Origin: Candidatus Dormiibacterota bacterium
Lineage (GTDB): Bacteria; Chloroflexota; Dormibacteria; Aeolococcales; Aeolococcaceae
Length of the DNA: 64,000 nucleotides
Assembly: GCA_963718525.1 (NCBI GenBank)
Contig: OY970355.1
Span: forward strand, 1,856,001 to 1,920,000
Reading direction: 5' to 3'
This document shows positions 2,965 through 17,940 of this stretch, piece by piece (position 1 is the first letter of the stretch; each line of letters opens with the position of its first letter). The notes beneath the pieces were generated by a model. The model was not told the origin of the DNA. It worked only from the letters and a program-made list of their open reading frames with translations, and ran no database searches. The position numbers and the translations under genes were made by a program.

Positions 2965-3001
2965 TTGCCGAGGAGCTCCTGGTTCCCGTCCGGGCTCGCC
3001 G

Positions 3002-3505
3002 CTAGGTGTCGCGGTCGGTGGCCCCGTCGATCCGTTCGCGGAGCAGGTCCGCGTGGCCGTTGTGGCGCGAGTACTCCTCGATCATGTGGTTGAGGATCCA
3101 GCGCATCGAGACTTCCCGGCCGGTCTTTTGGCGACCGGTCGCGTCGAGGGCGCGGCGGGAGATGATCTCGTCGGCCTGTTCGCGCTCCTCGCGCCAGGCA
3201 GCGAATGCTTCGTCAGGATCGGCGGTGTCGACGTTTTCGAAGTCGCCGTCGCGGTCGTCGGCGGACGAGTACCGATCGGCGACATCCTCTCCGGCGAGCG
3301 TCCGCCGGAACCATCCGCGCTCGACGTCGGCCATGTGGCGCACGAGCCCGAGCAGCGACATGGTTGACGGCTCGACCGAACGTCTCCGCAGTTGGTCAGG
3401 CTCGAGATTGGCGCATTTCCGAGCCAGGGTGGCGCGCTGCCATGCAAGGAACGCGAGCAGGGTCGAGCGCTCGTCGCCGGTTCGGGGAATTTCCTCGTAG
3501 TCCAT
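3002..3505 (-). CDS. DinB/DUF664 family protein
   Basis: SLLGLVRHMADVE...WF and HMIEEYSRHNGHADLLRERIDG motifs; start set at MDYEE. Confidence 0.9.
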   Translation of the reverse strand: MDYEEIPRTGDERSTLLAFLAWQRATLARKCANLEPDQLRRRSVEPSTMSLLGLVRHMADVERGWFRRTLAGEDVADRYSSADDRDGDFENVDTADPDEAFAAWREEREQADEIISRRALDATGRQKTGREVSMRWILNHMIEEYSRHNGHADLLRERIDGATDRDT

Positions 3506-3563
3506 TCGGCTGAAAGTATGGCCGGTGTCAGAGCGGGGGACACAGGCGGGCACGCGCCGCTGC

Positions 3564-3581
3564 GAACGTCTGTTCTATACT
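3564..3581 (+). promoter_or_regulatory. LexA (Cheo-type) SOS box GAAC-N4-GTTC abutting a -10 TATACT
   Basis: cGAACGTCTGTTCt at 3564-3575, TATACT 3576-3581, ATG at 3588 (probably leaderless). Confidence 0.8.
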
Positions 3582-3587
3582 ACTGGG

Positions 3588-4802
3588 ATGTGTGATGGCG
3601 AGGACAAGCTGGGACAGCTCGAGCGGCTCCTGCAGGCGGTCGAGGCGTTCGTGGCCTCGCCGGGGGGTGAGATCAGCGGGTTCGACCTCGGCGAGCGTCT
3701 GATCCGCTTTCGCCACGGCATTGACCTCCTCGAGCTCCGCTTCGCCCACGAGGCTGCGACCTTTGCCTCCAGCGATGAGTACGAGGTCCAGGGCTCGAAC
3801 TCCCCGATCGATTGGGTCCGCCACCAGTGCCGGATGTCCAGCACCGCTGCGGCTCGTTCGATCGCCACCGGGGAGGCGGCACCCCAGCTTGCGGCCAGTG
3901 TGGTGGCGCTCCAGGAGGGCCGGATCGGGTTCGCCCATCTCTCCCTGCTCGCGGGGTTGGAGCGGGCCGCGGCGCGCACCGGGCAGAGCTTTGCCGAGGG
4001 TCCCCTCCTCGAGCTTGCCCTCGAGCACTCGGTCGGCCGCTTCGTCAAGGACTGTGAGCACGCCCGCCATGCCGCCGATGCCGCCGCGGTGCTCGCCGAG
4101 CACGTCGATGCGGTCGACGCCCGCTCTCTCGAGCTCACCACCTGCGAGGACGGCCGGCTGGCCGTGCACGGCGTCCTCGACCCGGTCGGCGGGGCCACGC
4201 TGCGGGTGGCCCTGGCACCGCTGTGTGGCCGCTCGGGGGTGGGCGACGAGCGACCCCGGGCTCGCCGCCTCGCCGACGGTCTCGTCGAGCTCGCCATGCA
4301 TGCCCTCGACCACGGCTTCACCACCGAGGGTGGGACGACTCGGACCCATCTCCAGCTCACCGCCTCGGTGGAGACGGTGATGGGGCTGTCCGGTGCGCCC
4401 GGTGGCGAGCTCGAGTTCGCCGGGGTGGTCCCGGCGGCCACGGTGCAGCGGCTCGCCTGTGACGCGAGCATCCGCCGGGTGCTGCTCGGTCCCGACTCTG
4501 CGGTGATCGACGTGGGCCGGGCGCTGCGGGTGCCCTCGGGTGCGGGACGTGCCGCGCTCCGGGTCCGCGACCAGGGCTGCGTCTGGCCGGGCTGTGAGCG
4601 TCCCTCGTCCTGGACCAACGCTCACCACGTCCTCCACTGGGGACACGGCGGGGAGACCAACCTTGAGAATCTGGTCCTGCTCTGCCACCGCCATCACTGG
4701 AAGGCGCATGAGGGTGGCTGGCAGGTGGTCAGGTCAGAGGAGGGGCGAATCCTGACGATCCCGCCGTCGCATAGGTACCAATCGTGGACTCGCGCCGGCT
4801 GA
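3588..4802 (+). CDS. DUF222 + HNH endonuclease protein (REP13E12-like)
   Basis: RRLADGLVEL, RLACDA, RDQGCVWPGC, AHHVLHWGHGGETNLENLVLLCHRHHWKAH. Confidence 0.92.
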   Translation: MCDGEDKLGQLERLLQAVEAFVASPGGEISGFDLGERLIRFRHGIDLLELRFAHEAATFASSDEYEVQGSNSPIDWVRHQCRMSSTAAARSIATGEAAPQLAASVVALQEGRIGFAHLSLLAGLERAAARTGQSFAEGPLLELALEHSVGRFVKDCEHARHAADAAAVLAEHVDAVDARSLELTTCEDGRLAVHGVLDPVGGATLRVALAPLCGRSGVGDERPRARRLADGLVELAMHALDHGFTTEGGTTRTHLQLTASVETVMGLSGAPGGELEFAGVVPAATVQRLACDASIRRVLLGPDSAVIDVGRALRVPSGAGRAALRVRDQGCVWPGCERPSSWTNAHHVLHWGHGGETNLENLVLLCHRHHWKAHEGGWQVVRSEEGRILTIPPSHRYQSWTRAG

Positions 4803-5227
4803 AGTCGGAGTCATGGAGGACTTTGGCGGTTGCGCAGTCGTCTTCGCTTGTCTCGGTGGTTGGATGGGTCTTGACGCGGCGGCCAACGCGGAAGGCGCGA
4901 TAACGGGTTGTGCCTCGACGAATTCGAGGTAGATCTGGTCGATCTGCTGATCGGTGAGGTCGGCCGAGGGCCGCTCGACCTTCACAGCCTCAAGAACCCT
5001 CAGGAGAATGCTCAAGTACTGGTAGAGCGGCCAGCACCTGCGGTCGCGGATATGGTTGGCGAGCCGAGCAAATTCCGGCTCCTTGGTGCGCGATCGCGAT
5101 CGCCGTCCCCTACCGGGGTTCGTCCGGCGTCGGCACCCGCCGCGAGATCGAAACTCGCTTGTGACGAGATCGAGCGACGGTAACGCCGTATATACCCCAT
5201 CCTTGACACCCAGAGCGGTTTCAATTC
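4734..5227 (-). pseudogene. Possible gene fragment of unknown function
   Basis: Open frame with protein-like stretch (KEPEFARLANHIRDRRCWPLYQYLSILLRVLEAV) but no convincing start; overlaps the HNH 3' end. Confidence 0.25.
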
Positions 5228-5249
5228 ACCAGACCGGAAGGGAGCCACG

Positions 5250-5780
5250 ATGACCCCGATTCGATTTCTCATTGGCACGGCACTCGTCGGCATGGTTGCC
5301 GGATGCGGTGCGGCCATCGTCAATGCCCCGGCAGGGGCCACGGCTGCACCGACCGCAGCGGCGACGGCGGCTTCGACCGTTCCGACGGCGGTTCCGACCG
5401 CTGTCCCCACCGCCGCACCGACTCCCGTGCCGACGGCGGTTCCGCCAACGCCTAAGCCGACCCCGGTCGTGACGACCGCTATGGCCAATGCGGCTGCGGC
5501 TGCCGCGCAGTATCTCGCCGAGGGCACCGGATTCTCGAAAGCCGGTTTAATCGCGCAGCTGGATTCCTCGTACGGTGATGGGTACACAGTTGCAGAGGCG
5601 ACCTACGGGGTCGATAGCCTGAACGCGAATTGGGATGCTCAAGCGGCTTTGGCGGCCAAGGCGTACCTCGCCACCGGGACGTTCTCGCGGGCCGCCATGA
5701 TCGCGCAGCTTGATTCCGCGTACGGGGATCAATTCACCTACGCGCAGGCTGTGTACGGCGCGACGGCTGCGGGGCTCTAA
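5250..5780 (+). CDS. Ltp-family surface lipoprotein
   Basis: Lipobox VAGC, Pro/Thr/Ala linker, two repeats A..YL...FS...LI.QL.S.YGD.(F/Y)T...A.YG. Confidence 0.85.
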   Translation: MTPIRFLIGTALVGMVAGCGAAIVNAPAGATAAPTAAATAASTVPTAVPTAVPTAAPTPVPTAVPPTPKPTPVVTTAMANAAAAAAQYLAEGTGFSKAGLIAQLDSSYGDGYTVAEATYGVDSLNANWDAQAALAAKAYLATGTFSRAAMIAQLDSAYGDQFTYAQAVYGATAAGL

Positions 5781-5919
5781 ACCAACTCGACGTTCGCCAC
5801 TACACGCAAAAGTAGTAGCCCGACAGAGCCTCTGAGACACGTCGAAGCGTCGAGTGCACTCTCGATCGTGTGACGCGCTACCCAGCCCCCTCATGGGCTG
5901 CCAGCAGCCCCCGCAGCGA

Positions 5920-5961
5920 TGCCCCGCCCAGATCGAAGGCGCGTGCCCCGCCCAGATCGAA
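5920..5961 (+). repeat. 18-bp direct repeat TGCCCCGCCCAGATCGAA x2
   Basis: Exact copies at 5920-5937 and 5944-5961. Confidence 0.85.
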
Positions 5962-6071
5962 AGAGCTGCTGACGCGTTCGACGCGAGAGTAGCGAATCCA
6001 CAACGACTGGCCCTCCCCGGAGCAGCACGTTGCCGCCGGCGCCTTCCCGCTCGCTACGACCCGACTTCTCA

Positions 6072-6116
6072 GGGCGCAACTGACTGGGCAACCTCGTCAA
6101 TCGTTAATACAACCCC
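6072..6116 (+). repeat. HNH-fragment/foreign junction, motif B copy 1
   Basis: ggcgcaactgactggg-CAACCTCGTCAATCGTTAATACAACCCC. Confidence 0.8.
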
Positions 6117-6318
6117 CTCCGGATTCGCGTGGCGGGGCGAGGCCGAATCTACAGCTGAAGGGGTCGTGGCCAGTCTCTGACACGGGCCCCCCGCTGGCTT
6201 GGGGGCGCACCGCCGCAGGCGGCCGATCCGTCCCACGTCGGAGCCTGCATCCGAACCGGGGATCGTGGGCTGGATCTCGGCGGGCGGCGCGGCTGAGCTG
6301 TGACAGAATTGCGCCGCG

Positions 6319-6780
6319 ATGCCCACCGTACGCGTCAGTGTCAACGGTGCGACGCACGAGCTCGAGGTCGAGCCGCGCGACCTCCTCGTGCACGTCCTGC
6401 GCGAGCGGCTTTCCCTCCACGCGACGAAGGTCGGCTGCGACACCTCGTCGTGCGGTGCGTGCACCGTCCTGCTTGATAGCGAGTCCGTCAAGTCGTGCAC
6501 GGTGTTCGCGGTGCAGGCGGACGGCACCGCCATCACGACGCTCGAGGGACTCGCCCACGGTGGCGACATGCATCCGGTGCAGCGAGCCTTCCATGAGAAC
6601 CACGGCCTGCAGTGCGGCTTTTGCACCCCGGGCATGGTCATGGCGGCGGTCTCGCTGCTGCGCGAGAACCCGCATCCGACCGCGAGCGATGTGCGCCAGG
6701 CGCTCGAGGGCAACATTTGCCGTTGCACGGGATACCACAACATCGTGCAGTCCGTCCTCGCCGCCGCCGCGACGGGCTGA
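6319..6780 (+). CDS. Molybdenum hydroxylase small [2Fe-2S] subunit (CoxS-like)
   Basis: GCDTSSCGAC, QCGFCTPG, GNICRCTGY. Confidence 0.95.
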   Translation: MPTVRVSVNGATHELEVEPRDLLVHVLRERLSLHATKVGCDTSSCGACTVLLDSESVKSCTVFAVQADGTAITTLEGLAHGGDMHPVQRAFHENHGLQCGFCTPGMVMAAVSLLRENPHPTASDVRQALEGNICRCTGYHNIVQSVLAAAATG

Positions 6781-6787
6781 CCCCGCC

Positions 6788-7648
6788 TCAGCCGGTTGCC
6801 CGGTCGAAGGCCTCCTGGACGGTACGACGCGTCAGCACGCGGGCAAGGTGACGTCGAAATTCCGCATCGGCGGAGAGATCGCTTACGGGCGATGTCCCCT
6901 CTGCCGCCAGCTCGGCGGCGCGGGGGATTGAGCCGGCGGCGGCGCCGGCCAGCGCCGCCTCGACCCCCGCGGCGCGCAGTGGGGTCGGGCCCATGTTCGC
7001 GAGCCCCACGACCGCACGGCTGATCTCCCCGTCCCGACGCTCGATGATCGCCGCCACTGCGACCGTCGCCCAGTCCTGCGCACGGCGGCGGAACTTCGTG
7101 TACGCCCAGCCGTGCCGGCGCGGCGGCACGGGGATGCGCACCTCCGCGATCAGCTCGCCCGGCCGCAACGACGTTTCCAGGAACGAAACGACGAGTTCGT
7201 CGACGCCGAGCTCTCGCCGGCCGTCGCGACCGTGGACGACGATCGTGGCATCGAGCGTGCGCAGCGCCGTGGGCACGTCGCCGGCAGGATCGGCGTGCGC
7301 CACCGCGCCTCCGATCGTGCCGCGATGGCGAACCTGCGGATCGCCGATGAGGCTGGCGACATACGCGAGGAGCGGGACATCTTCGCGCAGAACGGCGGAT
7401 GTCGCCACGTCATGATGTCGCGTCAAGGCGCCGATGGCCACGGTCTCTCCCTCCCGGCGCGTGTACGCGAGCTCGCCGCGCAGCGGGCCGATGTCGACGA
7501 GCGTCGACGGCCGCGCCATGCGCAGGCGCATCAGCGGGATGAGAGACATGCCGCCTGCGAGTGCTTTGGCCTCGTCGTCATGGGCGAGCAGCGCCGCCGC
7601 CTCATCGAGGCTGGAAACGCGACGGTACTCGAACGGTGCCGGAATCAC
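6788..7648 (-). CDS. Molybdenum hydroxylase FAD subunit (CoxM-like)
   Basis: MIPAPFEY start (GTG overlapping the coxL stop), LAGGMSLIP, RHRGTIGG. Confidence 0.93.
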   Translation of the reverse strand: MIPAPFEYRRVSSLDEAAALLAHDDEAKALAGGMSLIPLMRLRMARPSTLVDIGPLRGELAYTRREGETVAIGALTRHHDVATSAVLREDVPLLAYVASLIGDPQVRHRGTIGGAVAHADPAGDVPTALRTLDATIVVHGRDGRRELGVDELVVSFLETSLRPGELIAEVRIPVPPRRHGWAYTKFRRRAQDWATVAVAAIIERRDGEISRAVVGLANMGPTPLRAAGVEAALAGAAAGSIPRAAELAAEGTSPVSDLSADAEFRRHLARVLTRRTVQEAFDRATG

Positions 7649-9963
7649 GCGGTCGCCTGAGCATGCGCCGCTGCCAGCGCGGCCACCACGCGCTGCGGCG
7701 AGCAGGGCATGTCGATGTGGCGCACGCCGGCGTGTGACAGGGCGTCGACGACCGCGTTCTGCACCGCCGGCGTCGCCCCGATCGCCCCGGACTCGCCGAT
7801 CCCCTTGGCTCCGAGCGGGTTGATCGGCGTCAGGGTCTCCATGCTGTGCAGCTCGAATGCGGGAAGCTCGGCGGCGGAGATGATCTCGTAGTCGGCGAAT
7901 GTCGAAGTCAGGAGGTTCCCGTCGGGATCGTACGTGATGGACTCGAGGAGCGCCTGGGCGCTGCCCTGCGCGATACCGCCGTGCAGCTGCCCCTCGGCGG
8001 CCACGGGGTTGACGATGCGCCCGGCGTCGTCGACCGCCACGAAACGCCGCAGGACGGTGCCACCGGTCTCGGTGTCGACCTCGACGACCGCCAAGTGCGC
8101 GCCGAACGGAAACGTGCCTCCCCGAACGGCGAATACGTGGTCGATCGCGAGCGCGCCACGCGCAGCGGCGGCCAGGTCCTTCCAGGTTTTGGCATCGAAC
8201 GGGGCACCGGCCACGTGGAATCGGCCGCTCTGCCGATCGAAGAGGACGTCGGCGACGTCGGCCTCGAGCGCCTCGCCGGCGAGGTGACGGGCGCGTTCGA
8301 CGAGCAGGTCGGCGGTCTCGACGACGGCATTGCCAATGGTCTGTACGGAGCGCGATCCGGCGGTGAGGTTGCCGGACCCGATGACGTTTGTGTCGCCGCA
8401 GATGACCTCGACGTCTTCGACCAGCACGCCCAGGCGGTCGCTCGCGATCATCGCCCACGTCGTCGCATGCCCCTGCCCCTGCGGTGAGGAACCGAGGCGC
8501 ACCAGGACGTGACCGTCGGGCCGCATCTCCATCGCGGCCGGCTCGGCGCCCGGAGCGAGCGACGTCACCTCGACGTAGACCGCCAAGCCCAGGCCAAGCT
8601 GCACCGGTCCTCCCTCGATGCGGCGGTGCTCCTGCTCGGCCCGCAGCGAGGCGTAGCCCAACTCCTCGAGCAGCCGGTCGAGCGCGGTCGCATATGCGCC
8701 CGAGTCGTACACCGCCGGCGCCAGCAGCATGCGCGCCATTGGGTCGACGTCGTCGTCGGGTCCGAACGTGCGGCCTGTGCGGGTCGCGAACGGGAACGCG
8801 TCGTCGGGGATCACGTTGCGCCGGCGCACGTCGGCGGGGTCCATGCCGATGCGCGCGGCGAAGAGGTCGACGGCGCGCTCGATGGCGGCGGCTGCCTCGG
8901 GTCGACCTGCACCGCGGAAGGCGATGACGGGGGCCGTCGTCGTCACGACGCTCCGGCCGTGTATCGCGATGTTCTCGATGTCGTAAACGCCCTGCGCCAT
9001 CATGCGGGTCAGATAAGCGAGAAAGGGGGCGACCGCCGGGTAGGCACCCGAGTCCTGGATGATGTCGAGCCGATACGCCTCGATGCGCCCGTCGCGGCTG
9101 CCGCCGATAGTGATGCGCTGCACCTGGGCGCGGCCGTGACCGCCGGCGAGCAGGTTCTCGCTGCGCGTCTCCGTCCAGCGCACGTCCCGGCCGATGTGCC
9201 GTCCTACCCAGGCAACGAGCAGCTCCTCGGGCATGAGATCCGTCTTCGTCCCGAAGCCGCCGCCGACGTCAGGGGCGATGACCCGCACCGCATCCAGCTC
9301 CACGCCGAGAGCGCCTGCCAGCTCGCCGCGGACGGGGTGGACGCCCTGCGTCGAGACCTGGAACGTCAGGTGGCCATCGCTCCATGAGGCCGCCGCGCCT
9401 CGCGTCTCGAGAGGCGACGCCGATACGCGCTGGTTGACGATGCGCTGCTCGACAACGACCTCGCACCGCGCCAGGGCGTCGGCAACGTCGCCGACGGTGA
9501 ACTCGTCGACGAGGTTGGTGCCCGCCTCCGGGAACAGCAGCGTCGCGTCGTCGAGGGCTGCCTCCGGGTCGACGACGGCGGGGAGCGGGACGTAGTCGAC
9601 CTGCACCAGCTCGGCGGCGTCGACCGCCTGCGTACGCGTCTCGGCGACGACGATGGCGACGGCCTCGCCGGAGAAGCGCACCGTGTCGCGAGCCAGCCAT
9701 GGCCGGGCCATCGCGGGGTGGCCGCCGAGCCCGGGAGGCGCCGGCGGGATGTCGACGTCAGCGGCGGTGAGCACGGCGAGGACTCCGCTCGCCGCCGCCG
9801 CCTGAGACGTTTCGATCCCCCGGATGCGTGCGTGAGCGCGGGGGGAGCGGACATAGACGATGTGGGCGGCGTCAGGCAGCTCGATGTCGTCCAGATACGT
9901 CCCGCCGCGAGTCAGCAGGCGGGGATCCTCGGTGCGCAGGACTCGCGTGCCCAGGATGCTCAT
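7645..9963 (-). CDS. Molybdopterin-binding large subunit (form II CoxL-like / xanthine dehydrogenase family)
   Basis: VGGGFG, AFRGAGR, QGQGH, GAKGIGE. Confidence 0.93.
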   Translation of the reverse strand: MSILGTRVLRTEDPRLLTRGGTYLDDIELPDAAHIVYVRSPRAHARIRGIETSQAAAASGVLAVLTAADVDIPPAPPGLGGHPAMARPWLARDTVRFSGEAVAIVVAETRTQAVDAAELVQVDYVPLPAVVDPEAALDDATLLFPEAGTNLVDEFTVGDVADALARCEVVVEQRIVNQRVSASPLETRGAAASWSDGHLTFQVSTQGVHPVRGELAGALGVELDAVRVIAPDVGGGFGTKTDLMPEELLVAWVGRHIGRDVRWTETRSENLLAGGHGRAQVQRITIGGSRDGRIEAYRLDIIQDSGAYPAVAPFLAYLTRMMAQGVYDIENIAIHGRSVVTTTAPVIAFRGAGRPEAAAAIERAVDLFAARIGMDPADVRRRNVIPDDAFPFATRTGRTFGPDDDVDPMARMLLAPAVYDSGAYATALDRLLEELGYASLRAEQEHRRIEGGPVQLGLGLAVYVEVTSLAPGAEPAAMEMRPDGHVLVRLGSSPQGQGHATTWAMIASDRLGVLVEDVEVICGDTNVIGSGNLTAGSRSVQTIGNAVVETADLLVERARHLAGEALEADVADVLFDRQSGRFHVAGAPFDAKTWKDLAAAARGALAIDHVFAVRGGTFPFGAHLAVVEVDTETGGTVLRRFVAVDDAGRIVNPVAAEGQLHGGIAQGSAQALLESITYDPDGNLLTSTFADYEIISAAELPAFELHSMETLTPINPLGAKGIGESGAIGATPAVQNAVVDALSHAGVRHIDMPCSPQRVVAALAAAHAQATA

Positions 9964-10104
9964 CGTGCGCAGCGGACCTTAGCGCAGCGCGCCTGCGGCA
10001 CGCAGCTAACCGAGGTCGGCACAGCTCCGGCGCCAGCTGGGGGTTGAAACCTTCTCAGCATGCCTTTGTGGACTCGCTGCGTGTTGGCAGGTGGTCATCC
10101 GCAT

Positions 10105-10155
10105 CATGCCGGCGCAACCAACCTTGCCAACCTCGTTCATCGCTGATACAACCCC
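10105..10155 (+). repeat. HNH-fragment/foreign junction, motif B copy 2
   Basis: cat gcc ggc gca acc aac ctt gcc aac ctc gtt (HAGATNLANLV) followed by CATCGCTGATACAACCCC. Confidence 0.8.
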
Positions 10156-10275
10156 CGGAGAGGCGGGCGAACGAGTTGGGTCGAGTGCCATCGCGGACAT
10201 CACGCAAGGGTCCGGGGAGGATGCAGGATTTCGCGGTGGTGTGCTGGCCGTTTCTGTCGAGAAATGGATGCAGTC

Positions 10276-10518
10276 CTAGTAGACGTGAGTCGTCCGGACC
10301 ATCCTCACCAAGTCCGCGATCCGTGAATCCACGGCAACCCGCGTTGCACGACCTGCCAAGTCGCTCAGTTCACGATCAATGTGATCGAGGATCGCGCTCA
10401 CCTCCTCATCATCGAGCGGAAAGCCGACCACCGCGGCAGCGGCATCGACGTCCTCACTTCCAATGGTGACGGGGATCCGCACCTCGCGGGTCATCGCAGT
10501 GCTAACCATGGCGAGCAT
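10276..10518 (-). CDS. Small hypothetical protein
   Basis: GGAGG RBS, protein-like composition. Confidence 0.55.
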   Translation of the reverse strand: MLAMVSTAMTREVRIPVTIGSEDVDAAAAVVGFPLDDEEVSAILDHIDRELSDLAGRATRVAVDSRIADLVRMVRTTHVY

Positions 10519-10746
10519 CGTCATCCTCCAGTGCGGGCTGAGAGGTGTGACGGGCTGTTTACGCCCGTTTTCTCTGGAATCCATCGTTTCCGAACGTGCG
10601 CCGATGCACAAGAGCAGAACGTCCCGTTTGGAAGAACGGGAGGAGAGCCGATTGTCACACCGGCCACTGTCCTAACGATGAGGAGGGCTCGTCGTCTGGC
10701 GATCTGATGTCGCTGGTACCCGCGCGGCGGGGCCGACGTGGTTTGG

Positions 10747-10876
10747 TGAGCTCTGGGTTTTGTGGAGTTGAGTCATTGGACTGTCATGCTGCAGTCCACC
10801 AGGAGGACGGCATGGGGCAGACGGGGCTATCCGGCGGAGAGTTTCGGTAGCGTGTCCTTGCCTGGTAGCAGCTAGG
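10747..10876 (+). mobile_element. Degenerate IS3-family left end with orfA stub
   Basis: TGAG..GGGTTTTGTGGAG IR-like start, AGGAGG RBS, ATG 10812, decayed MG.RGYPAEFR.RVL.LVAA-like sequence with indels and stops. Confidence 0.6.
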
Positions 10877-10908
10877 TGGCCAACCTCGTCCATCGTTAGT
10901 ACGACCCC
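10876..10908 (+). repeat. HNH-fragment/foreign junction, motif B copy 3
   Basis: gtggc-CAACCTCGTCCATCGTTAGTACGACCCC. Confidence 0.78.
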
Positions 10909-10946
10909 TCGAAGACCGCCGGGTGCGATTAGCGGCGACTCCTCGC

Positions 10947-11942
10947 CTATAAGTGAGCCGTGAGCCAGGCAACGATCGCCGTGACGGTGTCGGGGTCCAG
11001 TGAGGTGTCGGCCGCGTTGTACATTTGCATCGCCTGCTCCTGCACGAGCTGCTCACGCGGTCGCGGCTCATATTTCAGCACGTGATTGGCGTTCTCGGGG
11101 AAGAGGAAGCTGACGTCGATCAGCCCCGCTGCGGCGCGCTGCAGGGGCTTCACGTCGGCGTGCCAATCGACCTGTAGATCTTTTTTCCCGATGACGATGA
11201 GCACGGGCACGCGCACCTCCCTGAGCGGTGCTGCCGCGTCCGCGGTCCAGAGCTCACGGGCAAATGGAAGGTTGGCGGGGGTCTCCAGGGCCGATATCAG
11301 ATAGCGCACGCCCTCCGGCAGGGCCGGATCTGGGGTGGCGGGCTCACCCGCAAGAAATCTAGCGACCGCGGCGTCGTACAGGCGGAGCAGCTGCTCGCCA
11401 TTCGGGACGCCCTTGGCTTGGGCTGCAAGCTGGGACCGGGTGACGGCACCCACGGTGCGGCCGGGCGGCCCTGTCAGCACCAGGCCGGCCAAGGGGATGC
11501 CGGGGTCATGAACCTGGTAGTTGAGAGCGTGGAGGGTCCCTTCGCTATTGCCGAGGGCGAAGATCCGATCCCGCCGGACGTCCTGTTGCTCGGCAAGGGT
11601 GCGCACCGCCCCCGCGAGCTCATCGACGTGGCTCTGCATGGTGATCGCGCCGATCAGGAGGGGGATCGTCTCGCGGACATGGGGGCCGGAAGCGCGTTTG
11701 TCGTAGCGCAGTGAGGCGAAACCAGCTCGCCCGAGCGCCTCGGCGAGCAGGCGACCGCTGCCATTGGTCCCGGGAAGGAGTCGGGAGTTCCAGTCGCGGT
11801 CCGTCGGGCCACTGCCGGCAACGAACACGACCCCCGGGAAGGGACCGGCTCCCTCCGGCTTTATCGCGGAGCCATGGACAGTGGTGGGGCCAAGCGGCCA
11901 GCTGACCTCCATGCTCTGCGAAGACGAGGTGCTATCAGTCAT
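10947..11942 (-). CDS. Alpha/beta hydrolase
   Basis: AGSGPTDRD, RYDKR, GNSEG nucleophile elbow, GKKDLQV, NHVLK. Confidence 0.88.
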   Translation of the reverse strand: MTDSTSSSQSMEVSWPLGPTTVHGSAIKPEGAGPFPGVVFVAGSGPTDRDWNSRLLPGTNGSGRLLAEALGRAGFASLRYDKRASGPHVRETIPLLIGAITMQSHVDELAGAVRTLAEQQDVRRDRIFALGNSEGTLHALNYQVHDPGIPLAGLVLTGPPGRTVGAVTRSQLAAQAKGVPNGEQLLRLYDAAVARFLAGEPATPDPALPEGVRYLISALETPANLPFARELWTADAAAPLREVRVPVLIVIGKKDLQVDWHADVKPLQRAAAGLIDVSFLFPENANHVLKYEPRPREQLVQEQAMQMYNAADTSLDPDTVTAIVAWLTAHL

Positions 11943-12027
11943 CGTGCAGTCCTCCAGATGCTGGCGTTCGCCGCGGTCGGTCCTCGTAGGTCGCCGATGC
12001 ATTCGAGCCGGGTGTGGCGCTGCTGGT

Positions 12028-12777
12028 TCACCGATCCAACGTCCGGGCACCGGTGAGGTGCGTAGCGAACATCAAGAGCCCCAGCGTTGCTCCCACGGTG
12101 ATGCCGACGCCCTGCCACGGAACGCCCCCTTTGCCTGCGAGCAGGTCCTGAATCCCGGAGGACAGCGAAGTCGGCAGCCACAACGCCAGTGCGCTGATTG
12201 AGTCCAGGAGCGCCAGCGCAAGCAGGGTGGCGATGCTCCAGCCAACGACTGCCAGGACGCTCCTGACGATCGCCGCCCAAGCGGTTACCACCGAGACCGT
12301 GAACGCGACCCAGAGCATCTCAAGTCCGCATCCGGCCGCGAGCGCGGCCGGCGACACGTAGCCTATGAGAAGCCGGGTCTCATACCAGGCGGCAGCAGTT
12401 CCCAGAACCAGCGCGAGCATGGCTGTGAGTGCCGTCGCCGTCGAGCGGGGAAGGAGGAGCATCACCGGACGGCGGATCCGTGTCCGATAGAAGATGGCAA
12501 GCGAGGGGTGGGCGTCGACGGCGATGCAAGCTGCCGCCACGATGACGACGACGAGGGTGCCCAGTTGGGCAGCCTCCTGGGAGAACGATTTCATCGCCCC
12601 AAAAGCGGTGGTGGGCGGAAGGACGATCTTCACCCCATTCGTGCCGCTTTTCACCAACTCGGGGAGGTAGTAAGTGAGCACCGGCTCGCCGAAGCCGAGG
12701 ACGAGGAAGGCCCCGAGCAGAGCCACCACGCGTCGGGTGCGCCAGAGACGGAGCACCTCGAGGCGCCAGAGGTTCAC
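12028..12777 (-). CDS. ABC-2 type permease
   Basis: GTG start MNLWRLE overlapping the ATPase stop; about 6 TM helices. Confidence 0.85.
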   Translation of the reverse strand: MNLWRLEVLRLWRTRRVVALLGAFLVLGFGEPVLTYYLPELVKSGTNGVKIVLPPTTAFGAMKSFSQEAAQLGTLVVVIVAAACIAVDAHPSLAIFYRTRIRRPVMLLLPRSTATALTAMLALVLGTAAAWYETRLLIGYVSPAALAAGCGLEMLWVAFTVSVVTAWAAIVRSVLAVVGWSIATLLALALLDSISALALWLPTSLSSGIQDLLAGKGGVPWQGVGITVGATLGLLMFATHLTGARTLDR

Positions 12778-13691
12778 CGCGTTTGCGCCTCCGCTTTCGC
12801 TGCGGAAGCGGTGAGCGCAAGGAATGCCGCGTCGAGGGTCGGGCGGATTGGCGAGAGTGAGATCACCCGGGCTCCTACGTCGGCAAGGAGCATGGGCAAC
12901 CGGAGCTCGACCTGATCGGCGGCTGTGGCGTGAAGCTCGATGCGCCCTGGTGCCGTCTCGGCGACCTCCAGCACCCAGGGGGCTGCCCTGAGGCGCGGTA
13001 TGAGCCGATCTGCCGGCGGGCGAACCTCGACCTGCCAGCGGTTCCCACTCACGGTCGCCAAGAGGTCGGGGGTCGTGCCCTGGAAGATGAGGCGGCCGTC
13101 GACCAGCACGCCGATGTCGCTGCACAACTCCTCGACCCCGGAGAGGTCGTGGCTCGAGATGACGACGGTGCTCTGGCCGGCCAGCGAGGCGAGGAGATCC
13201 AGAATGTCCGCGCGCCCCAGCGGGTCGAGGGAGGCCACCGGTTCGTCGAGCAGCAGGATCCGCGGCTCGAGGACCAGCGCAGCGCTCAGGTTGAGACGGG
13301 TGGTCATGCCTCGGGAGAAGCCGCCAACCCGCCGATCCGCTGCCTTCGTGAGGCCGACCCGGCCGAGCGAAGCGGACACGGCACCCTGATCTGCGCGTCC
13401 GCCAAGTAGGCTCACGGAGAGGGCCACCACCTCAGCCGCGGTCAGCCAGGGTTCGAACTCGGCGACGTCCGGGCAGTAGGCGATGGCGGAGTGGGGCGAA
13501 GCCAGATGGACCTCACCGGCGCTAGGACGACGGAGCCCCGCCAGAATCTCGAGGAGTGTCGTCTTGCCCGCTCCGTTCGGTCCAATGAGACCGTAGAGCG
13601 CGCCCGTCGGCACCTCCAGCTCGACGCCGGCCAGCGCGGTTGTCGTGCCGTACGTTTTGTCGAGTGCGGTCGTGGAAACGGCGATGGTCAG
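12774..13691 (-). CDS. ABC transporter ATP-binding protein (probable CTG start)
   Basis: GPNGAGKT, FSRGM, LLLDEP, SSH; start placed at CTGA overlap with upstream gene. Confidence 0.9.
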   Translation of the reverse strand: MTIAVSTTALDKTYGTTTALAGVELEVPTGALYGLIGPNGAGKTTLLEILAGLRRPSAGEVHLASPHSAIAYCPDVAEFEPWLTAAEVVALSVSLLGGRADQGAVSASLGRVGLTKAADRRVGGFSRGMTTRLNLSAALVLEPRILLLDEPVASLDPLGRADILDLLASLAGQSTVVISSHDLSGVEELCSDIGVLVDGRLIFQGTTPDLLATVSGNRWQVEVRPPADRLIPRLRAAPWVLEVAETAPGRIELHATAADQVELRLPMLLADVGARVISLSPIRPTLDAAFLALTASAAKAEAQTR

Positions 13692-13900
13692 CGGGGTTTC
13701 CCGACCGCGAGGTAGACGATCCCCGCCAACGGCGAGATGGTCACGCAGAGGATCGCCCACGCCCAGCGGGGCAGGTACGCGGCTCTCTTCGCTCTGGCGA
13801 TGTCGACCAGGCAGAAGACGTCGAAACCGACGACCACCACCAACAGAGGGACGAGCGCGGCCACCAGGGTCGCGCTTGCGATGGCGAGCATCGTTATCAT
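13688..13900 (-). CDS. PLDc N-terminal domain small membrane protein
   Basis: CLVDIAR...LPRWAWAILCV...PLAGIVYLAVGK pattern. Confidence 0.8.
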   Translation of the reverse strand: MITMLAIASATLVAALVPLLVVVVGFDVFCLVDIARAKRAAYLPRWAWAILCVTISPLAGIVYLAVGKPR

Positions 13901-13924
13901 CTTCGTGAATGATAGCAGAAGTGT

Positions 13925-13941
13925 GAACATTGTTCTAGGAT
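13925..13941 (+). promoter_or_regulatory. Palindrome GAACATTGTTC next to -10 TAGGAT between divergent genes (putative ArsR-type operator)
   Basis: Inverted repeat 13925-13935; ATG at 13948. Confidence 0.5.
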
Positions 13942-13947
13942 GGGCTC

Positions 13948-14643
13948 ATGGCCGATGCGAACCTGCTGCTCCACCCCATCCGCCTCCGGATCATCCAGGC
14001 GTTTCTGGGCGATCGCGCGCTGACCACCGGCCAGCTCAACGCCGAACTGCCGGACGTGCCCCCGGGGAGCCTGTACCGGCATGTCGGCCTACTTGTGAGC
14101 GCAGGCGTGCTCAGTGTCGTGGCCGAGCGCCGGGTTCGTGGCGTCGTAGAGCGCACCTACGTGCTTCGCGAGAGCGCCGCCTATGTGAATCCCGAGATGA
14201 CCATCGAGGAGCACCGCCGTGCGTTCATGACCTTCATCGCAGGGCTCCTCGGTGACTTCGACCGCTACCTAGCGCTCGGCCAGCCCGACCTGGTGCGTGA
14301 TGGAGTCGGGTATCGCCTCGGCGCGATGTGGCTGTCTGACGTTGAGTTCACCGAGTTCCTTCGAGACCTGGCTCGCGTAATCCAGCCTCGGATGGCGAAC
14401 GCTCCCTCGCCGGCGCGCCGGCGCCGCGTAGTGGCTGGGGTGACGTTGCCCACGTCCCCTGCACCCAAGACACGCTCAAGGGGCCGACAAAGGAAGGACC
14501 GAACGAGCCGTAGAGCTGAACTCATGAAGCTGTCCGTGGGCCGGCCCTGCCCCGTAATGGAGGTTATGGCGTCAGGCCTGCCCTACGCCAAGCGAACCGA
14601 CCATTGCTCACGCCAGTGTGGTCAACCTACATTTGTGGATTAA
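13948..14643 (+). CDS. ArsR-like HTH transcriptional regulator with non-conserved-looking C-terminal extension
   Basis: LLHPIRLRIIQAF...SLYRHV...ERRVRGVVERTY; ORF stops inside junction motif A. Confidence 0.85.
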   Translation: MADANLLLHPIRLRIIQAFLGDRALTTGQLNAELPDVPPGSLYRHVGLLVSAGVLSVVAERRVRGVVERTYVLRESAAYVNPEMTIEEHRRAFMTFIAGLLGDFDRYLALGQPDLVRDGVGYRLGAMWLSDVEFTEFLRDLARVIQPRMANAPSPARRRRVVAGVTLPTSPAPKTRSRGRQRKDRTSRRAELMKLSVGRPCPVMEVMASGLPYAKRTDHCSRQCGQPTFVD

Positions 14644-14651
14644 CGGGCACC
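14625..14651 (+). repeat. Foreign/HNH junction, motif A copy 1
   Basis: ACCTACATTTGTGGATTAACGGGCACC; 25/27 identical to 15866-15892. Confidence 0.82.
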
Positions 14652-14712
14652 CCAGCGCGCACTCACAACACCCGAGCCGAGCGGTCGCGCGTGGCAGGAG
14701 GATGATGCTTCC

Positions 14713-15156
14713 ATGTCATCGCACTCTCGTTGGGGGATTAGTCCGCGACGCAACATCGAGGCTGAATGCAGGCGCCGGGGGAAGGCCGAAGTGGTTGCGG
14801 GGTGCATCGCTCTCTTCGATGGGGACACGCGCGACCGCAGGCTTATCGTCGCCCTGGGAGGGCCGCCCGCGCGGGAGATGCTGATCGGCAACTCGCGCGC
14901 TGACCTTCTGCTCTGGACGCGGGTTTGGGCGGTCAGGGGCTTACTGTGGGCCTGGGACGAGTCGGCGCGCGACGCGCTCCGCGCCGCCCTAGACGACGAC
15001 GCCTGGCGAGTCCGGGAGATGGCCGCTAAGGTGGTCGCTCGGAACCTCCTCGGCGACGTCTTGAGCAGCTGTGCAAACCTGCGCAACGACCCCGTAGCTC
15101 GAGTGCGGCAGGCAGCCGGGCGATCGGTTGCCCGGCTGACCCTCTCTAGAGCCTGA
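14713..15156 (+). CDS. HEAT-repeat protein
   Basis: ALDDDAWRVREMAAKV and LRNDPVARVRQAA repeats; AGGAGG upstream. Confidence 0.8.
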   Translation: MSSHSRWGISPRRNIEAECRRRGKAEVVAGCIALFDGDTRDRRLIVALGGPPAREMLIGNSRADLLLWTRVWAVRGLLWAWDESARDALRAALDDDAWRVREMAAKVVARNLLGDVLSSCANLRNDPVARVRQAAGRSVARLTLSRA

Positions 15157-15332
15157 TGTGCCACCTCTGTTAAACGACCCACGGCACGTCCGCCTCGCTG
15201 ACGCCAGCGTGCCGTCAACACACTTGAACTGAGGAAGCGAACCACTCCAGAAGCGGCCGGGACCGGAGCGACGAAATCGCAACTCTGAGTGGTCCGAATG
15301 CCGCGAAAGACGGGAAGACCTGAACTCGGAAG

Positions 15333-15566
15333 CTACTGGAACGACGGTATGAACCTAATCGTCCTCTGGCCCGCAGCAAAACCGAGTCGGTTCTCGATCA
15401 ACTCGGGATGCGGGTCCGCGCGCTCCTGACCCTCGGCGAAGGTGCCCTGGTGGGGGTAACGCGCTCGCCCCATACCCGATGCGAAGTCGCCCCGCTCACC
15501 GGCGAGCTCTGGATGGTGCTCGGATATCTCTTGCCCCACGGCAAAGGTTCCCTCGTGCTTGTGCAT
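15333..15566 (-). CDS. Small internally repeated protein (4x FAxG)
   Basis: GGGAGA RBS; HEGTFAVGQE..HPEL..GDFASG / HQGTFAEGQE..HPEL..GFAAGQ. Confidence 0.65.
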   Translation of the reverse strand: MHKHEGTFAVGQEISEHHPELAGERGDFASGMGRARYPHQGTFAEGQERADPHPELIENRLGFAAGQRTIRFIPSFQ

Positions 15567-15865
15567 GTCAGTCTCCCAGGACCCTGAATGACCGTCCAGC
15601 GCCGGGTCCCACAAGCCGACCAGCCGGTAGTGGTGGAACAGCCTTGAGCGTACGAAGGTGCGGTCACGACTTCCGTGCGGTGGCGAACATAAGCGAACAG
15701 CGTCGTCGACTCCGATCGGGGAAATCGATCGGGGAGGCCTCACTTGACCCGCCAGGAGCGCCTCTGTCGGCATACCTCGTGGGGTTGACGCGCTTGCCCA
15801 ACAGAGCGTGCTGTCACCTGAACCGGTCCGGGACGTGCCTGGCACCGGTCGAAGAAACCATTTGG

Positions 15866-15960
15866 ACCTACATTTGCGGATTGACGGGCACCACGTCCTC
15901 CACTGGGGGCACGGCGGGGCGACCAACCTTGAGAACCTCGTCAATCGTTAATACATCCCC
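15866..15960 (+). repeat. Motif A + HNH left-arm fragment + motif B copy 4
   Basis: 15889-15942 matches 4623-4676 at 50/54; flanked by ACCTACATTTGCGGAT and AATCGTTAATACATCCCC. Confidence 0.9.
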
Positions 15961-16029
15961 CAGAGCCCGCCGAGTGGGATCTGCTTCGGTTGGGCGAGGA
16001 ACTCCTAGTGCTCGCGCCTTGCGACGACC

Positions 16030-16047
16030 GTGAATCCCGGCCTGCCG
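16030..16047 (+). repeat. 18-bp direct repeat C, copy 1
   Basis: GTGAATCCCGGCCTGCCG, exact copy at 16941-16958. Confidence 0.82.
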
Positions 16048-16123
16048 ACGTCTGCGGTTGGCGGTCCGGGCCAAAGAGGAAACAGCCTCCGACGTCGCTA
16101 TTCGGGTTCATTCGCCGACACGA

Positions 16124-16819
16124 TCAGTCGGACTGGCGATCCTGTTGGTCTTCAGCCGTCAGGCTGGCTGATGGATTTGGCGCTGGTGCAGCACCCGCTG
16201 ATTGGGCAAGGTTGGTGCTGTCCGGCGATGCGATGGTGACGATTCGGGGCGCCTGCTCGACGCGGATTCTGTCCTGGAGGCCCTCAATCCCGCCCGTCAG
16301 CCAACCGGGAACACTAACAGCGTCGATGCCCAGGGGACGCCGCGCCCGGTGATCCATCCTGATGAGGGTTCGCGTGAGCCACTCGAAATCCTCATAGACG
16401 CCGTGACCTTGTTCAGCCCGCCACTGCTGGACATAGGGCTCAAGGACCGTCCACCAGATAAAGATGGCACTCCCGAACAAACGACAGAGCAGCTTGATGT
16501 CAAGGTGCCCGCTCCGGCTGAGCGAGCCCAAGCCTTCAAAGTAGTTGCCAACGGCTATTCCGGCCCCGGCAGGGATCTCGCGCTTATCGCGGGCGGCGAC
16601 GAGGATCGCGAGTCGATGGCGAAGAATGCGCTCGTCGTCGAACTGTTGGGATAATTCATTGACCAGCTCGACCGCGCGCCCGCTCCGGGCGAGTCGGACC
16701 TGGCGGTATATCGCGATGAATGTGATCGCAAGGGCCGTGAACTGGAGCGCGGCCCAGAACCACTCCGAGCCCGGTCCGATGAATGCCATCCCCTTGGTGT
16801 TGATGAACGTCACGTCCAT
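16124..16819 (-). CDS. Hypothetical membrane-anchored protein (DUF4760-like)
   Basis: GGAGG RBS, N-terminal TM, NYFEGLG...YEDFEWL pattern. Confidence 0.7.
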   Translation of the reverse strand: MDVTFINTKGMAFIGPGSEWFWAALQFTALAITFIAIYRQVRLARSGRAVELVNELSQQFDDERILRHRLAILVAARDKREIPAGAGIAVGNYFEGLGSLSRSGHLDIKLLCRLFGSAIFIWWTVLEPYVQQWRAEQGHGVYEDFEWLTRTLIRMDHRARRPLGIDAVSVPGWLTGGIEGLQDRIRVEQAPRIVTIASPDSTNLAQSAGAAPAPNPSASLTAEDQQDRQSD

Positions 16820-16940
16820 ACCTCCGTTGCGCTAGCAGGATGGGCGGGACGATACAAATCGCGGGATCCGCAAGCAACGAGGGACGCGAGCTAGCCTCGG
16901 AGGTCAGCACCAGCGTCGAGTTCAGTGTGGCAGCCCTATA

Positions 16941-16958
16941 GTGAATCCCGGCCTGCCG
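16941..16958 (+). repeat. 18-bp direct repeat C, copy 2
   Basis: Exact copy of 16030-16047. Confidence 0.82.
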
Positions 16959-17142
16959 GGCGCGATGTCGACTCCCCAGAGGCTAGTGTCGGGCGGTCTC
17001 AGCGCCGCAAGTCAAGCAGCGACCTGGACGCTGACGCTTCGCCGAACAAGAGATCCCCTCCACGCTGACAGTCGCTGGGCCGTCCTCCTCGGCCGAGAGG
17101 GGCTTACAAGAGGTCGGGGCCCCTCTTGCTGGCGAAAAGCAT

Positions 17143-17715
17143 CTAAGGATCGGGATTTGGCCCGGACGACGGCCGCCATTGACGCCTGATCAGCCCGTAT
17201 ACCCACGAGTCCGACACCTCGCCGTTCACGACGCAGTCCTCCCGCAACGTCCCTTCACGCACGAATCCGAGCTTTTCCAGGACGCGGGCAGAAGCCGCAT
17301 TGCGCGTATCGGTCTCGGCCTGGACTCGATTCAGGTCCAGCGTGTCAAATGCCCACTGCAGCAAGGCGCGCCCGGCCTCCGTCGCGTAGCCGTGACCCCA
17401 GGCCGCATCGTCAAGGCAGAAGCCCATCGACGCACTGCGGTAGTCAGGGTTCCACCGGGTCAGACCGCACCATCCGATGAACCCATTGTCGGAAATACGG
17501 TCCAGGGCCAGCCGCGCCCCGCTGCCGTCCTCTTCCATGCGCCCACAATCCGCGACAAAGCGCTCGGCCCGCGCACGTTCGCTCCAGGGCGGCGCATCCC
17601 AGTAGCGCAGCACGTAGGCACTACTGTGCAGCGCGAAGAGGGCATCCGCGTCCGCGCTGGTGAAGGGGCGCAACCGCAGGCGAGCGGTTCGCAGTGTCGG
17701 GGTGGGCAAGGACAT
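17143..17715 (-). CDS. GNAT acetyltransferase, RimJ/RimL family
   Basis: TARLRLRPF, WGHGYATEA, NAASARVLEKLGFVREG. Confidence 0.93.
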   Translation of the reverse strand: MSLPTPTLRTARLRLRPFTSADADALFALHSSAYVLRYWDAPPWSERARAERFVADCGRMEEDGSGARLALDRISDNGFIGWCGLTRWNPDYRSASMGFCLDDAAWGHGYATEAGRALLQWAFDTLDLNRVQAETDTRNAASARVLEKLGFVREGTLREDCVVNGEVSDSWVYGLIRRQWRPSSGPNPDP

Positions 17716-17855
17716 TCGTGCCATCTTGCCTTTCCATGAGCGAAGGCGGGGCAACCGCCTACGCGAGCCCGAGACCCGGACCCCGCTGAGAGTCCAATCT
17801 ACAAGAGTGCAGCTCACGACAGGCGAGGTCCGGAACCCGGGCAAGCCAGATCGGC

Positions 17856-17940
17856 AATCTGGTCCAGCTCTGCCACCGCCATCACTGGAAGGTGCATGAG
17901 GGCGGCTGGCTGGTGTCAGGTCCGAGGAGGGCCGAATCCT
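17856..17940 (+). pseudogene. HNH right-arm fragment (NLV.LCHRHHWK.HEGGW...)
   Basis: Matches 4668-4753 with 6 substitutions and 1 gap. Confidence 0.9.

Follow-up and report, generated by a model that had tools for sequence, protein, structure and literature searches.

phiRv1 of Mycobacterium tuberculosis has a serine-recombinase integrase and sits within a REP13E12 repeat (PMC9317374), a member of the HNH endonuclease/DUF222 family (PMC10589994, PMC13157036). In composite islands of the staphylococcal cassette chromosome (SCC), elements of large serine recombinases (LSRs) stand in tandem with internal att boundaries, and some att-flanked units have no recombinase (ccr) genes. The excised unit may vary with the site chosen, and the oldest element is assumed to be the one that lies at the greatest distance from the end of the target gene (PMC13739063). 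The tycheposons of Prochlorococcus are site-specific integrative elements with integration, replication and cargo modules, and in their islands serial integration at one site pushes older elements inward and leaves partial copies of the target as seams; the targets are tRNA genes and the enzymes mostly tyrosine recombinases, with LSRs in the minority (bioRxiv 10.1101/2020.12.28.424599). Here we describe an array of gene cassettes in a 64,000-nucleotide stretch of a Candidatus Dormiibacterota genome (contig OY970355.1, positions 1,856,001 to 1,920,000; called the window, with positions in its own coordinates unless marked as genome positions), where four att-like repeats, called motif B, had been noticed in a reading made from the sequence alone.

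The window contains one example of a type of cassette array that is found across the lineage, is based on a serine recombinase and has selfish HNH genes as its landing pads. Positions 6089-17966 form an LSR-less array of four cassettes (4.0, 0.75, 5.05 and 1.9 kb) closed by the right piece of an HNH gene. We consider it probable that the repeats are seams from the splicing of mobile DNA into an HNH gene by an LSR, and that the four-cassette array is a recombinase-less product of this process. In naming the parts of sites we use b for an HNH-type left arm, B' for the right half of the HNH gene, P' for the conserved right part of the motif and P for the arm beside the recombinase gene; a repeat of the window is a b-P' hybrid.

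Hybrid junctions and their target gene

The four repeats of the window are a genuine, non-random feature. The motif pattern matched exactly four times, always on the plus strand (6090-6116, 10129-10155, 10882-10908 and 15934-15960, which are the previously listed 28-mers minus their first base), the sequences were as quoted in the sequence-only reading, and none of 100 dinucleotide-preserving shuffles gave any match (0 expected by chance). That reading had taken the copies for att-type junctions of an HNH left arm and a foreign right arm, each reading NLV-(N/H)-R-stop in the HNH frame, and both points hold for all four, with TAA, TGA, TAG and TAA as the stops. Conservation in a longer alignment of the four copies runs only from about 20 nt left of the motif through its last C. 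The source genome is a single contig of 3.34 Mb with 66% G+C, and a weight-matrix scan of its whole length at 18 bits or more found exactly 13 copies. The score distribution is sharply bimodal: the weakest copy scores 34.6 bits and nothing falls between 18 bits and this value. Of the nine copies outside the window, seven belong to groups with a common orientation, among them three at 2.4766-2.4798 Mb and two at 1.0243-1.0257 Mb, and the remainder are single.

Within the genus the pattern occurs 123 times in 30 of 42 genomes, and a reversed control pattern gave one match. Beyond the genus, 4 of 75 family genomes carry it. When 185,579 species genomes were scanned, there were 32 exact matches, nearly all of them in records labelled as Candidatus Dormibacterota metagenome-assembled genomes (MAGs), and a check for viral origin found no exact match in viral contigs. 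The left-arm analysis below used 89 distinct copies, and the flank analysis 88 junctions with enough flank.

The left arm of the motif comes from a DUF222-HNH (13E12-type) gene that is broken off within the Asn codon of "NLV". In tblastn searches of the source genome, residue 384 (the V of NLV) is exactly the last residue of the HNH left parts, and the motif then follows; two of these left parts are long (residues 33-384, genome 1025684-1026775 and 2479757-2480633). HNH right parts begin at residues 370-384, and one of them lies in the window. The intact gene of the window is uninterrupted here and reads ...GGETNLE-NLV-LLCHRHH. From the spacing of the motif, the cut Asn is very probably the N of H-N-H. 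The gene has three copies in the genome that are 98-100% identical by tblastn (the intact window gene, genome 1-1227 and genome 539401-540645). The repeated DNA unit is 99-100% identical (window 3551-4795, genome 5-1226 and genome 539402-540646) and corresponds almost exactly to the open reading frame (ORF), which suggests gene conversion or an ORF-sized mobility of the HNH gene itself.

Left arms differ in how much of the HNH gene can still be recognized. The full HHxxHWxxGGxTxLx signature occurs in 16 of the 89 copies (as at site 4) and its GGxTxLx part in another 28 (as at sites 2 and 3); the other 45 have weaker remnants (as at site 1), yet positions -12, -10, -4, -3 and -1 are conserved even in this weakest class. 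Internal sites carry truncated HNH bodies, in the window at 15825-15942 with a scrap at 14625-14651. This gradient may reflect the decay of once-complete HNH left parts under half-site constraint. The proposal that all four left arms of the window come from HNH alleles is clear for 15933 and can be followed at a shallow level for 10128; the arms at 10881 and 6089 are decayed, and "GATD.G" is obtained at 6089 only across a frameshift.

A conserved left-arm family of about 60 nt that does not look like HNH sequence (approximately LPAPSAR.C.R.FA.R.W.A-NLV) precedes site 1 at about 6030-6089. The same family was found at L031, L048 (twice), L049, L052 and L053 (twice), in at least four other genomes, and in L049 it is fused directly to the HNH right half. 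We also considered whether the left arms of the closing piece at 17844 and of a solo copy at genome 2951618 are P-type arms of a second attP family. Both read G-x-S-Q-I-x-NLV and have no TATTAGC block, and we favor their assignment as diverged HNH-type (b) arms.

Large serine recombinases and cassette arrays

The genome encodes two LSRs with Resolvase, Recombinase and Zn_ribbon_recom domains (Pfam), LSR1 at genome 1001826-1003250 and LSR2 at about genome 2467630-2469024 (1.00 and 2.47 Mb). Both genes start about 30 bp from an HNH right-half (P-B') junction, at genome 1001814 and 2467632, respectively. Element 1 extends over genome 1001814-1025692 (24 kb) and element 2 over genome 2467632-2479765 (12 kb), and in each an HNH right half forms one end and the motif fused to an HNH left part (residues 33-384) forms the other. 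Because the far-end copies of the motif join long HNH left parts, the two elements sit in HNH genes between NLV and LLCxxHH, and motif B is their attL-type junction. The sequence-only reading had proposed a search for a free attP (inverted arms, no HNH) beside an integrase gene; a complementary arm that lacks the HNH left part adjoins both LSRs. Element 1 also contains an excisionase-like HTH_17 ORF (L063:4537-4740), which is a candidate directionality factor only.

The two arms of the element's own site are related to each other. The P' arm has the consensus CCTCGTC[C/A]ATCG[T/C]TAATAC[A/G]ACCC, and the arm on the LSR side (GGGTCATATTAGCGA...) is an inverted repeat of it that agrees, by hand count, at 16 of the 25 positions, including 12 of the outer 15. 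All four P arms of the LSR1 clade have the same spacing. The AA of the Asn codon (AAC) is where the two 25-nt halves join, which predicts an attP of about 50 bp, an imperfect inverted repeat with a non-palindromic centre, in keeping with this family of enzymes; the central dinucleotide AA was placed by symmetry and not by mapping. We rejected CC as the central dinucleotide, which would render intact AATCTG copies immune, since the P arms fix the symmetry centre on AA.

The same target is used by close relatives of the enzyme. At all four loci of the genus with an LSR at least 55% identical to LSR1, an HNH right half is fused to the P arm; LSRs of the genus that are about 45% identical to LSR1 have a similar outer arm and other targets. 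Among 15 metagenomic relatives with upstream sequence, 12 (47-66% identity) read P arm, AAYCT and xLCxxHH when inspected by eye, a thirteenth (L142) was ambiguous, and the two at 36-40% identity did not show this order. Public data contain more than 120 protein clusters at least 57% identical to LSR1. Its few named relatives, the closest at about 60% identity, are annotated "recombinase family protein" and come from Mycobacteriales, Microthrixaceae, Acidimicrobiales and other soil MAGs. LSR1-type recombinases form a clade, widespread in soil, that is dedicated to a single codon in the HNH motif of 13E12-type genes. A separate observation concerns locus L095 (G128:C20), whose LSR is 33% identical to LSR1 and also abuts an HNH right half, which starts at residue 385. 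Given this lineage, targeting of the codon may have arisen more than once.

We fetched twenty co-oriented motif regions and mapped their layout, which recurs as DUF222-HNH left part, site, cassette, site, cassette, site, cassette and HNH right piece. The clearest example, L062, has HNH residues 59-384, sites at 5913, 8385 and 11680, and HNH residues 362-414 at 12260-12418. Six arrays with a captured far end have no LSR and end in an HNH right piece after the last site (four sites in the window, three each in L044, L045, L060 and L062; the sixth array is L049). Three others have an LSR at the far end, namely elements 1 and 2 and L048. No HNH right (B') piece lies between two sites in any mapped array.

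Clustering of the 250-nt flanks of the 88 junctions gave nine left-flank and five right-flank clusters with more than one member. The members of all nine and of all five are joined to different partners, and none of the 3828 junction pairs shares both flanks. The sequence-only reading had suggested that the junctions arose in separate events, and this complete reassortment of left and right flanks agrees with it. The 20-nt left arm tracks the left flank (5.6 mismatches, background 10.8), and the P' arm tracks the right flank (2.8 mismatches, background 4.25; with only the left flank shared the value is 4.07, no improvement on background). Because the left arm follows the left flank and the P' arm follows the right flank, the exchange point is the core. 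Each cassette owns the P' arm at its left and the b arm at its right. Beyond the four repeats first noticed, the window thus holds one array that ends in the HNH right piece at 17844-17966, with its crossover in the AA of the Asn codon, and it belongs to a lineage-wide system.

Origin of the arrays

The arrangement could have been produced by canonical LSR reactions only. LSR elements would integrate at the b-B' end of an array by attP x attB, and at excision the attR of the element would pair with any upstream attL-type site, so that the departing element would take cassettes along or leave them in place. An HNH gene within or next to one element, when entered by a second, would give a lineage its first internal site. 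These steps would build and reshuffle arrays and would explain why every internal seam is b-P', why each array has a single B' at its far end, and why LSRs occur only there. The closing piece of the window, with its short HNH-type left arm and right half, looks like a usable attB, and the two LSRs of the genome could act on the window array in trans. The anatomy of the sites, the position of the LSRs beside them, the split target gene, the layout of the arrays and the exchange at the core are observed; the origin of the b arms in once-complete HNH genes, catalysis by these LSRs and the order of events are the parts of this scheme that we infer.

Several observations weigh against this explanation. 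The first internal b-P' site is not creatable by canonical LSR chemistry alone, and the extra HNH gene that is needed in or beside an element is one to which the remnant gradient may point. A close LSR (at least 55% identical) occurs in only 3 of the 30 motif-bearing genomes of the genus, so most arrays have no cognate enzyme in their (incomplete) assemblies. Contigs of soil runs X2-X5 contained no excision or circle junction over window positions 3001-20000. No empty site was found in the relatives G015 and G017, whose homology to the window starts only at 17941 and 17956; with synteny lost and neighboring DNA mapping elsewhere in G000, no orthologous unoccupied locus is definable. There is no HNH gene body directly upstream of site 1 (6089), which leaves the left end of the window array undefined. 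Since a pattern was used to find the copies, conservation within it is to some extent circular.

Three other soil runs have contigs that span the sites: record 3 of X2 (4718-11149) includes sites 1-3 and record 5 of X2 includes site 4. One X2 contig joins 4537, in the intact HNH gene, to 15888, in an HNH remnant, and skips 11,350 bp; its shorter side is 31 letters, and the joint is too weak for interpretation. It may come from a strain without the first three cassettes of the array, or it may be a repeat artefact.

The arrays could also be integron-like, with single cassettes excising as circles and reinserting through b-P' x b-P' or b-P' x b-B' by an LSR of the same family with relaxed site pairing; a cassette would then need no complete LSR element as its companion. 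The cassettes are small (median 1.43 kb, range 142-6796 bp, n = 38) and completely reassorted at the core, most arrays have no LSR in cis, near-core positions of the left arm are conserved even where the HNH signature is gone, and one arm family is fused both to P' (at site 1 and others) and to B' (L049). All of these features would be expected of independently moving cassettes, but attL x attL and attL x attB reactions are barred by the directionality rule of serine integrases; according to PMC3783163 and PMC5499577, characterised LSRs do not recombine attL with attL or attB. The absence of circle or deletion junctions from the soil-run contigs also speaks against such movement, as do cassette genes that have no common orientation (34 against 41) and bring their own regulators, unlike integron cassettes, and the alternative use of attL sites by whole elements fits the same data. 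We therefore regard the relaxed-enzyme reaction as unlikely. An LSR-run system of this kind, in which single cassettes of 0.6-5 kb, each with one hybrid b-P' site, move independently and multi-copy selfish HNH genes serve as renewable landing pads, is in our opinion doubtful. If it were true, serine integrases would not be limited to attP x attB as their rule demands, and the system would be the main route of accessory-gene exchange in an uncultured soil phylum, a serine-recombinase counterpart of integrons.

We considered two further explanations. The motif could be the homing or insertion target of the HNH gene, whose nuclease would cut it and copy its own gene beside it; the gene is indeed multi-copy, with a repeat unit equal to the ORF in three 98-100% identical copies, and an intact copy lies 1.3 kb left of site 1. 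The HNH part that adjoins the motif always lacks the C-terminal LCxxHH, however, which rules it out as an active inserted copy. The C-terminus that it lacks lies across the array or element, at the opposite end beside the LSR, and intact HNH copies have no adjoining motif; we consider homing very improbable. Alternatively, the motif could be a dispersed repeat, REP-like or terminator-like, that descends from one ancestral truncated HNH junction, has spread by duplication, plays no part in recombination and keeps its stop through selection against a half-nuclease. Such a repeat would account for the in-frame stop, kept in 100 of 123 copies, and for the hairpin-like extension downstream of 29 of 89. 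Its left arms, however, derive from clearly different HNH alleles, and the flanks of the 88 junctions are unrelated save for 14 shared clusters, which are always reassorted. The stop-related and fold evidence given next likewise speaks against a dispersed repeat, which we consider very improbable.

By hand count, the sixth codon of the 123 genus copies is a stop in 100 (TAA 70, TAG 21, TGA 9) and a sense codon in 23 (CAA 9, TAC 3, GAA 2, AAA 2, TGG 2, and TAT, TTA, TCG, GGA and GAG 1 each). Single transitions away from TAA kept a stop in 30 of 39 cases against an expectation of 2/3 (binomial p = 0.115), a value that overstates the evidence because the copies are related and not independent. 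The triplet is mirrored in all four P arms (TTA in three, CTA in one), where it lies in the leader of the recombinase gene and in no HNH frame. The stop triplet therefore belongs to the palindromic recognition sequence of the recombinase; a truncating stop may be convenient, and no separate selection is needed. The earlier proposal that the stop is retained by selection against a half-nuclease finds no support in the transition counts or in the mirrored triplet; the att junctions, the separate events and the integrase-side arm of the sequence-only reading stand.

A conserved extension (AGAGCCGCCGAGTGAGATCAGCGTCGGCTGGGCGAG-like) lies at about +30 to +70 after the motif in the 29 copies mentioned above, for example at 15961-16005. 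It forms a short stem round a conserved GAGTGAGATCA loop on the P' side of otherwise unrelated cassettes, and could be an accessory site or a terminator. Rfam gave no match at E <=1 over window positions 5500-18500 and has no family for the extension. Fold z-scores were weak, at -1.67, -0.53 and -2.24 for three site-bearing stretches and +1.63 for L005:160-260, which has no site. With no Rfam match and unconvincing z-scores, we rejected an RNA element as the explanation.

Cassette contents and relation to known systems

The features of the window array are listed in Table 1. The left arm of site 1 reads ...GRN*LG-NLV in frame. Two HNH pieces can be aligned closely with the intact gene: the 59 nt at 15884-15942, before site 4, are 90% identical to 4618-4676, and 17856-17915 in the closing piece is 93% identical to 4668-4727. 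The DUF4760 gene of cassette 4 has counterparts in cassettes of the array of element 2 and of L062.

Table 1. Features of the window array and the neighboring intact HNH gene (window coordinates)
Feature	Position	Strand	Evidence
Intact DUF222-HNH gene, 425 aa; unoccupied attB candidate	3525-4802	+	Pfam DUF222 5.2e-18, HNH 1.9e-4
Site 1, decayed HNH-type left arm (b) + P' arm; crossover AA 6090-6091	6089-6116	+	51.2 bits
Cassette 1, 4.0 kb, three-subunit molybdenum hydroxylase genes	6117-10127	.	Pfam
2Fe-2S subunit (cassette 1)	6319-6780	+	Pfam Fer2_2
FAD-binding subunit (cassette 1)	~6788-7640	-	Pfam FAD_binding_5 + CO_deh_flav_C
MoCo-binding subunit (cassette 1)	7645-9963	-	Pfam MoCoBD_1/2
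Site 2, b-P' hybrid; left arm HPHHAGATNLA-NLV (shallow HNH)	10128-10155	+	43.0 bits
Cassette 2, 0.75 kb, single small ORF 10276-10611 (-)	10156-10880	.	0 Pfam families
Site 3, b-P' hybrid; decayed left arm with in-frame stop	10881-10908	+	46.2 bits
Cassette 3, 5.05 kb	10909-15932	.	Pfam, internal repeats, tblastn
Alpha/beta hydrolase (cassette 3)	10947-12050	-	Pfam
ABC ATPase (cassette 3)	12774-13760	-	Pfam
HTH_20 regulator (cassette 3)	13948-14643	+	Pfam
HEAT-repeat protein (cassette 3)	14713-15156	+	Pfam
HNH-left remnants in cassette 3	14625-14651, 15825-15942		tblastn: HNH residues 365-384 at 15883-15942
Site 4, clear HNH left arm LRIDGHHVLHWGHGGATNLE-NLV	15933-15960	+	49.4 bits
Cassette 4, 1.9 kb: DUF4760 protein + GNAT acetyltransferase	15961-17843	.	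Pfam
DUF4760 protein (cassette 4)	16124-16819	-	Pfam
GNAT domain within ORF 17143-18324 (cassette 4)	~17260-17680	-	Pfam
Array right end, b-B' piece: short HNH-type left arm + NLV-QLCHRHHWKVHEGGW; core AA 17856-17857	17844-17966	+	tblastn HNH residues 378-415

The 2Fe-2S gene of cassette 1 is convergent with the FAD and MoCo genes (6788-9963), and these genes are on opposite strands in relatives too. In cassette 3 a 27-nt HNH fragment from the LHLxIxGH region is duplicated with 93% identity (14625-14651 and 15866-15892), which hints that this cassette arose by fusion of two older units that have lost the site between them. A trio of GntR, ABC ATPase and ABC-2 permease genes (682-2902, minus strand) lies immediately left of the intact HNH gene, and its gene content matches that of a 2.6-kb cassette found in arrays L046 and L050.

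The cassettes carry ordinary accessory genes. Among the 75 ORFs of the 38 mapped cassettes, 34 are oriented with the site and 41 against it. The cassette scan covered 68 of these ORFs, and Pfam families were found in 39; six others, all in the window, were scanned separately, and 7112-7660 (+), probably an opposite-strand shadow of the FAD-subunit gene, was left out. The families include SnoaL-like proteins, alpha/beta hydrolases, TetR, GntR and MerR regulators, ABC and MFS transporters and MTHFR, as well as GGDEF, DUF4760, glycosyltransferase and ice-binding-like proteins; cassettes bring their own regulators. The two LSR elements (L063-L065; genome 1001826-1025666 and 2467630-2479739) have replication genes (Prim-Pol with PriCT_1; Rep_trans) and defence-like cargo (HEPN_Swt1-DUF499, SNF2/ResIII helicase, OLD-type AAA-TOPRIM nuclease and TIR protein). 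In element 2, IS256- and IS110-type transposases come right after the LSR. Elsewhere in the genome, BLAST matches to one segment of L099 revealed a repeat of about 120-200 bp that is present at least 12 times within 70 kb (2177152-2247731).

These results identify a system of mobile DNA in Candidatus Dormibacterota, a phylum for which metagenomes are the only source, and explain a hypervariable island as an ordered array instead of noise. They extend the single precedent of phiRv1 to a general strategy in which a selfish multi-copy gene is the landing pad. For one integrase family they supply roughly 120 natural variants of attL, together with several P arms and a large number of attB alleles, as raw material for the study or engineering of site recognition by LSRs. 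We found no description of LSR cassette arrays in HNH genes in the literature, in a search that had subscription journals and preprint supplements outside its reach.

The likeness to integrons is one of array logic only: co-oriented sites separate small accessory-gene cassettes that reassort between genomes. The sites here are double-strand hybrids of LSR half-sites and not folded attC-type sites, and the cassette genes face both ways and carry their own regulators. None of the 11 matches to the tyrosine-recombinase family PF00589, to which IntI belongs, is located in the window or within either LSR element; the closest one is separated from an array site by about 18 kb and lies beyond the HNH-left end of element 1.

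With phiRv1 and REP13E12 the system shares the target gene family, as both the intact gene and the split copy of element 1 have Pfam DUF222 and HNH domains. As in phiRv1, the integrase is that of an element inside the target, and here it directly adjoins the junction. The host is of another phylum (the motif-bearing relatives are labelled Candidatus Dormibacterota MAGs), and multi-cassette arrays without an integrase are a further difference. In SCC, which enters rlmH, and in the Enterococcus cassette chromosome (PMC6222049), LSR-driven elements likewise enter one conserved gene, and the tandem units, internal att boundaries and recombinase-less units at one target gene all have counterparts here. 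The LSRs of the present system are not Ccr proteins (NCBIfam CcrB 50.7 and 55.9 bits against a cut-off of 900, CcrA 42.1 and 26.2 against 700). Its target is a multi-copy selfish HNH gene instead of the single-copy rlmH, its cassettes, with a median of 1.4 kb, are much smaller and each array has far more of them, and its hosts are uncultured soil bacteria. Element 1, with its LSR, HTH_17 protein, Prim-Pol with PriCT_1 and cargo, resembles a tycheposon, from which it differs in having a protein-coding HNH motif as target, an LSR, and hybrid half-site seams in place of partial tRNAs. By these comparisons, the closest relatives of the array system appear to be phiRv1 with REP13E12, the composite SCC islands and the tycheposon islands.

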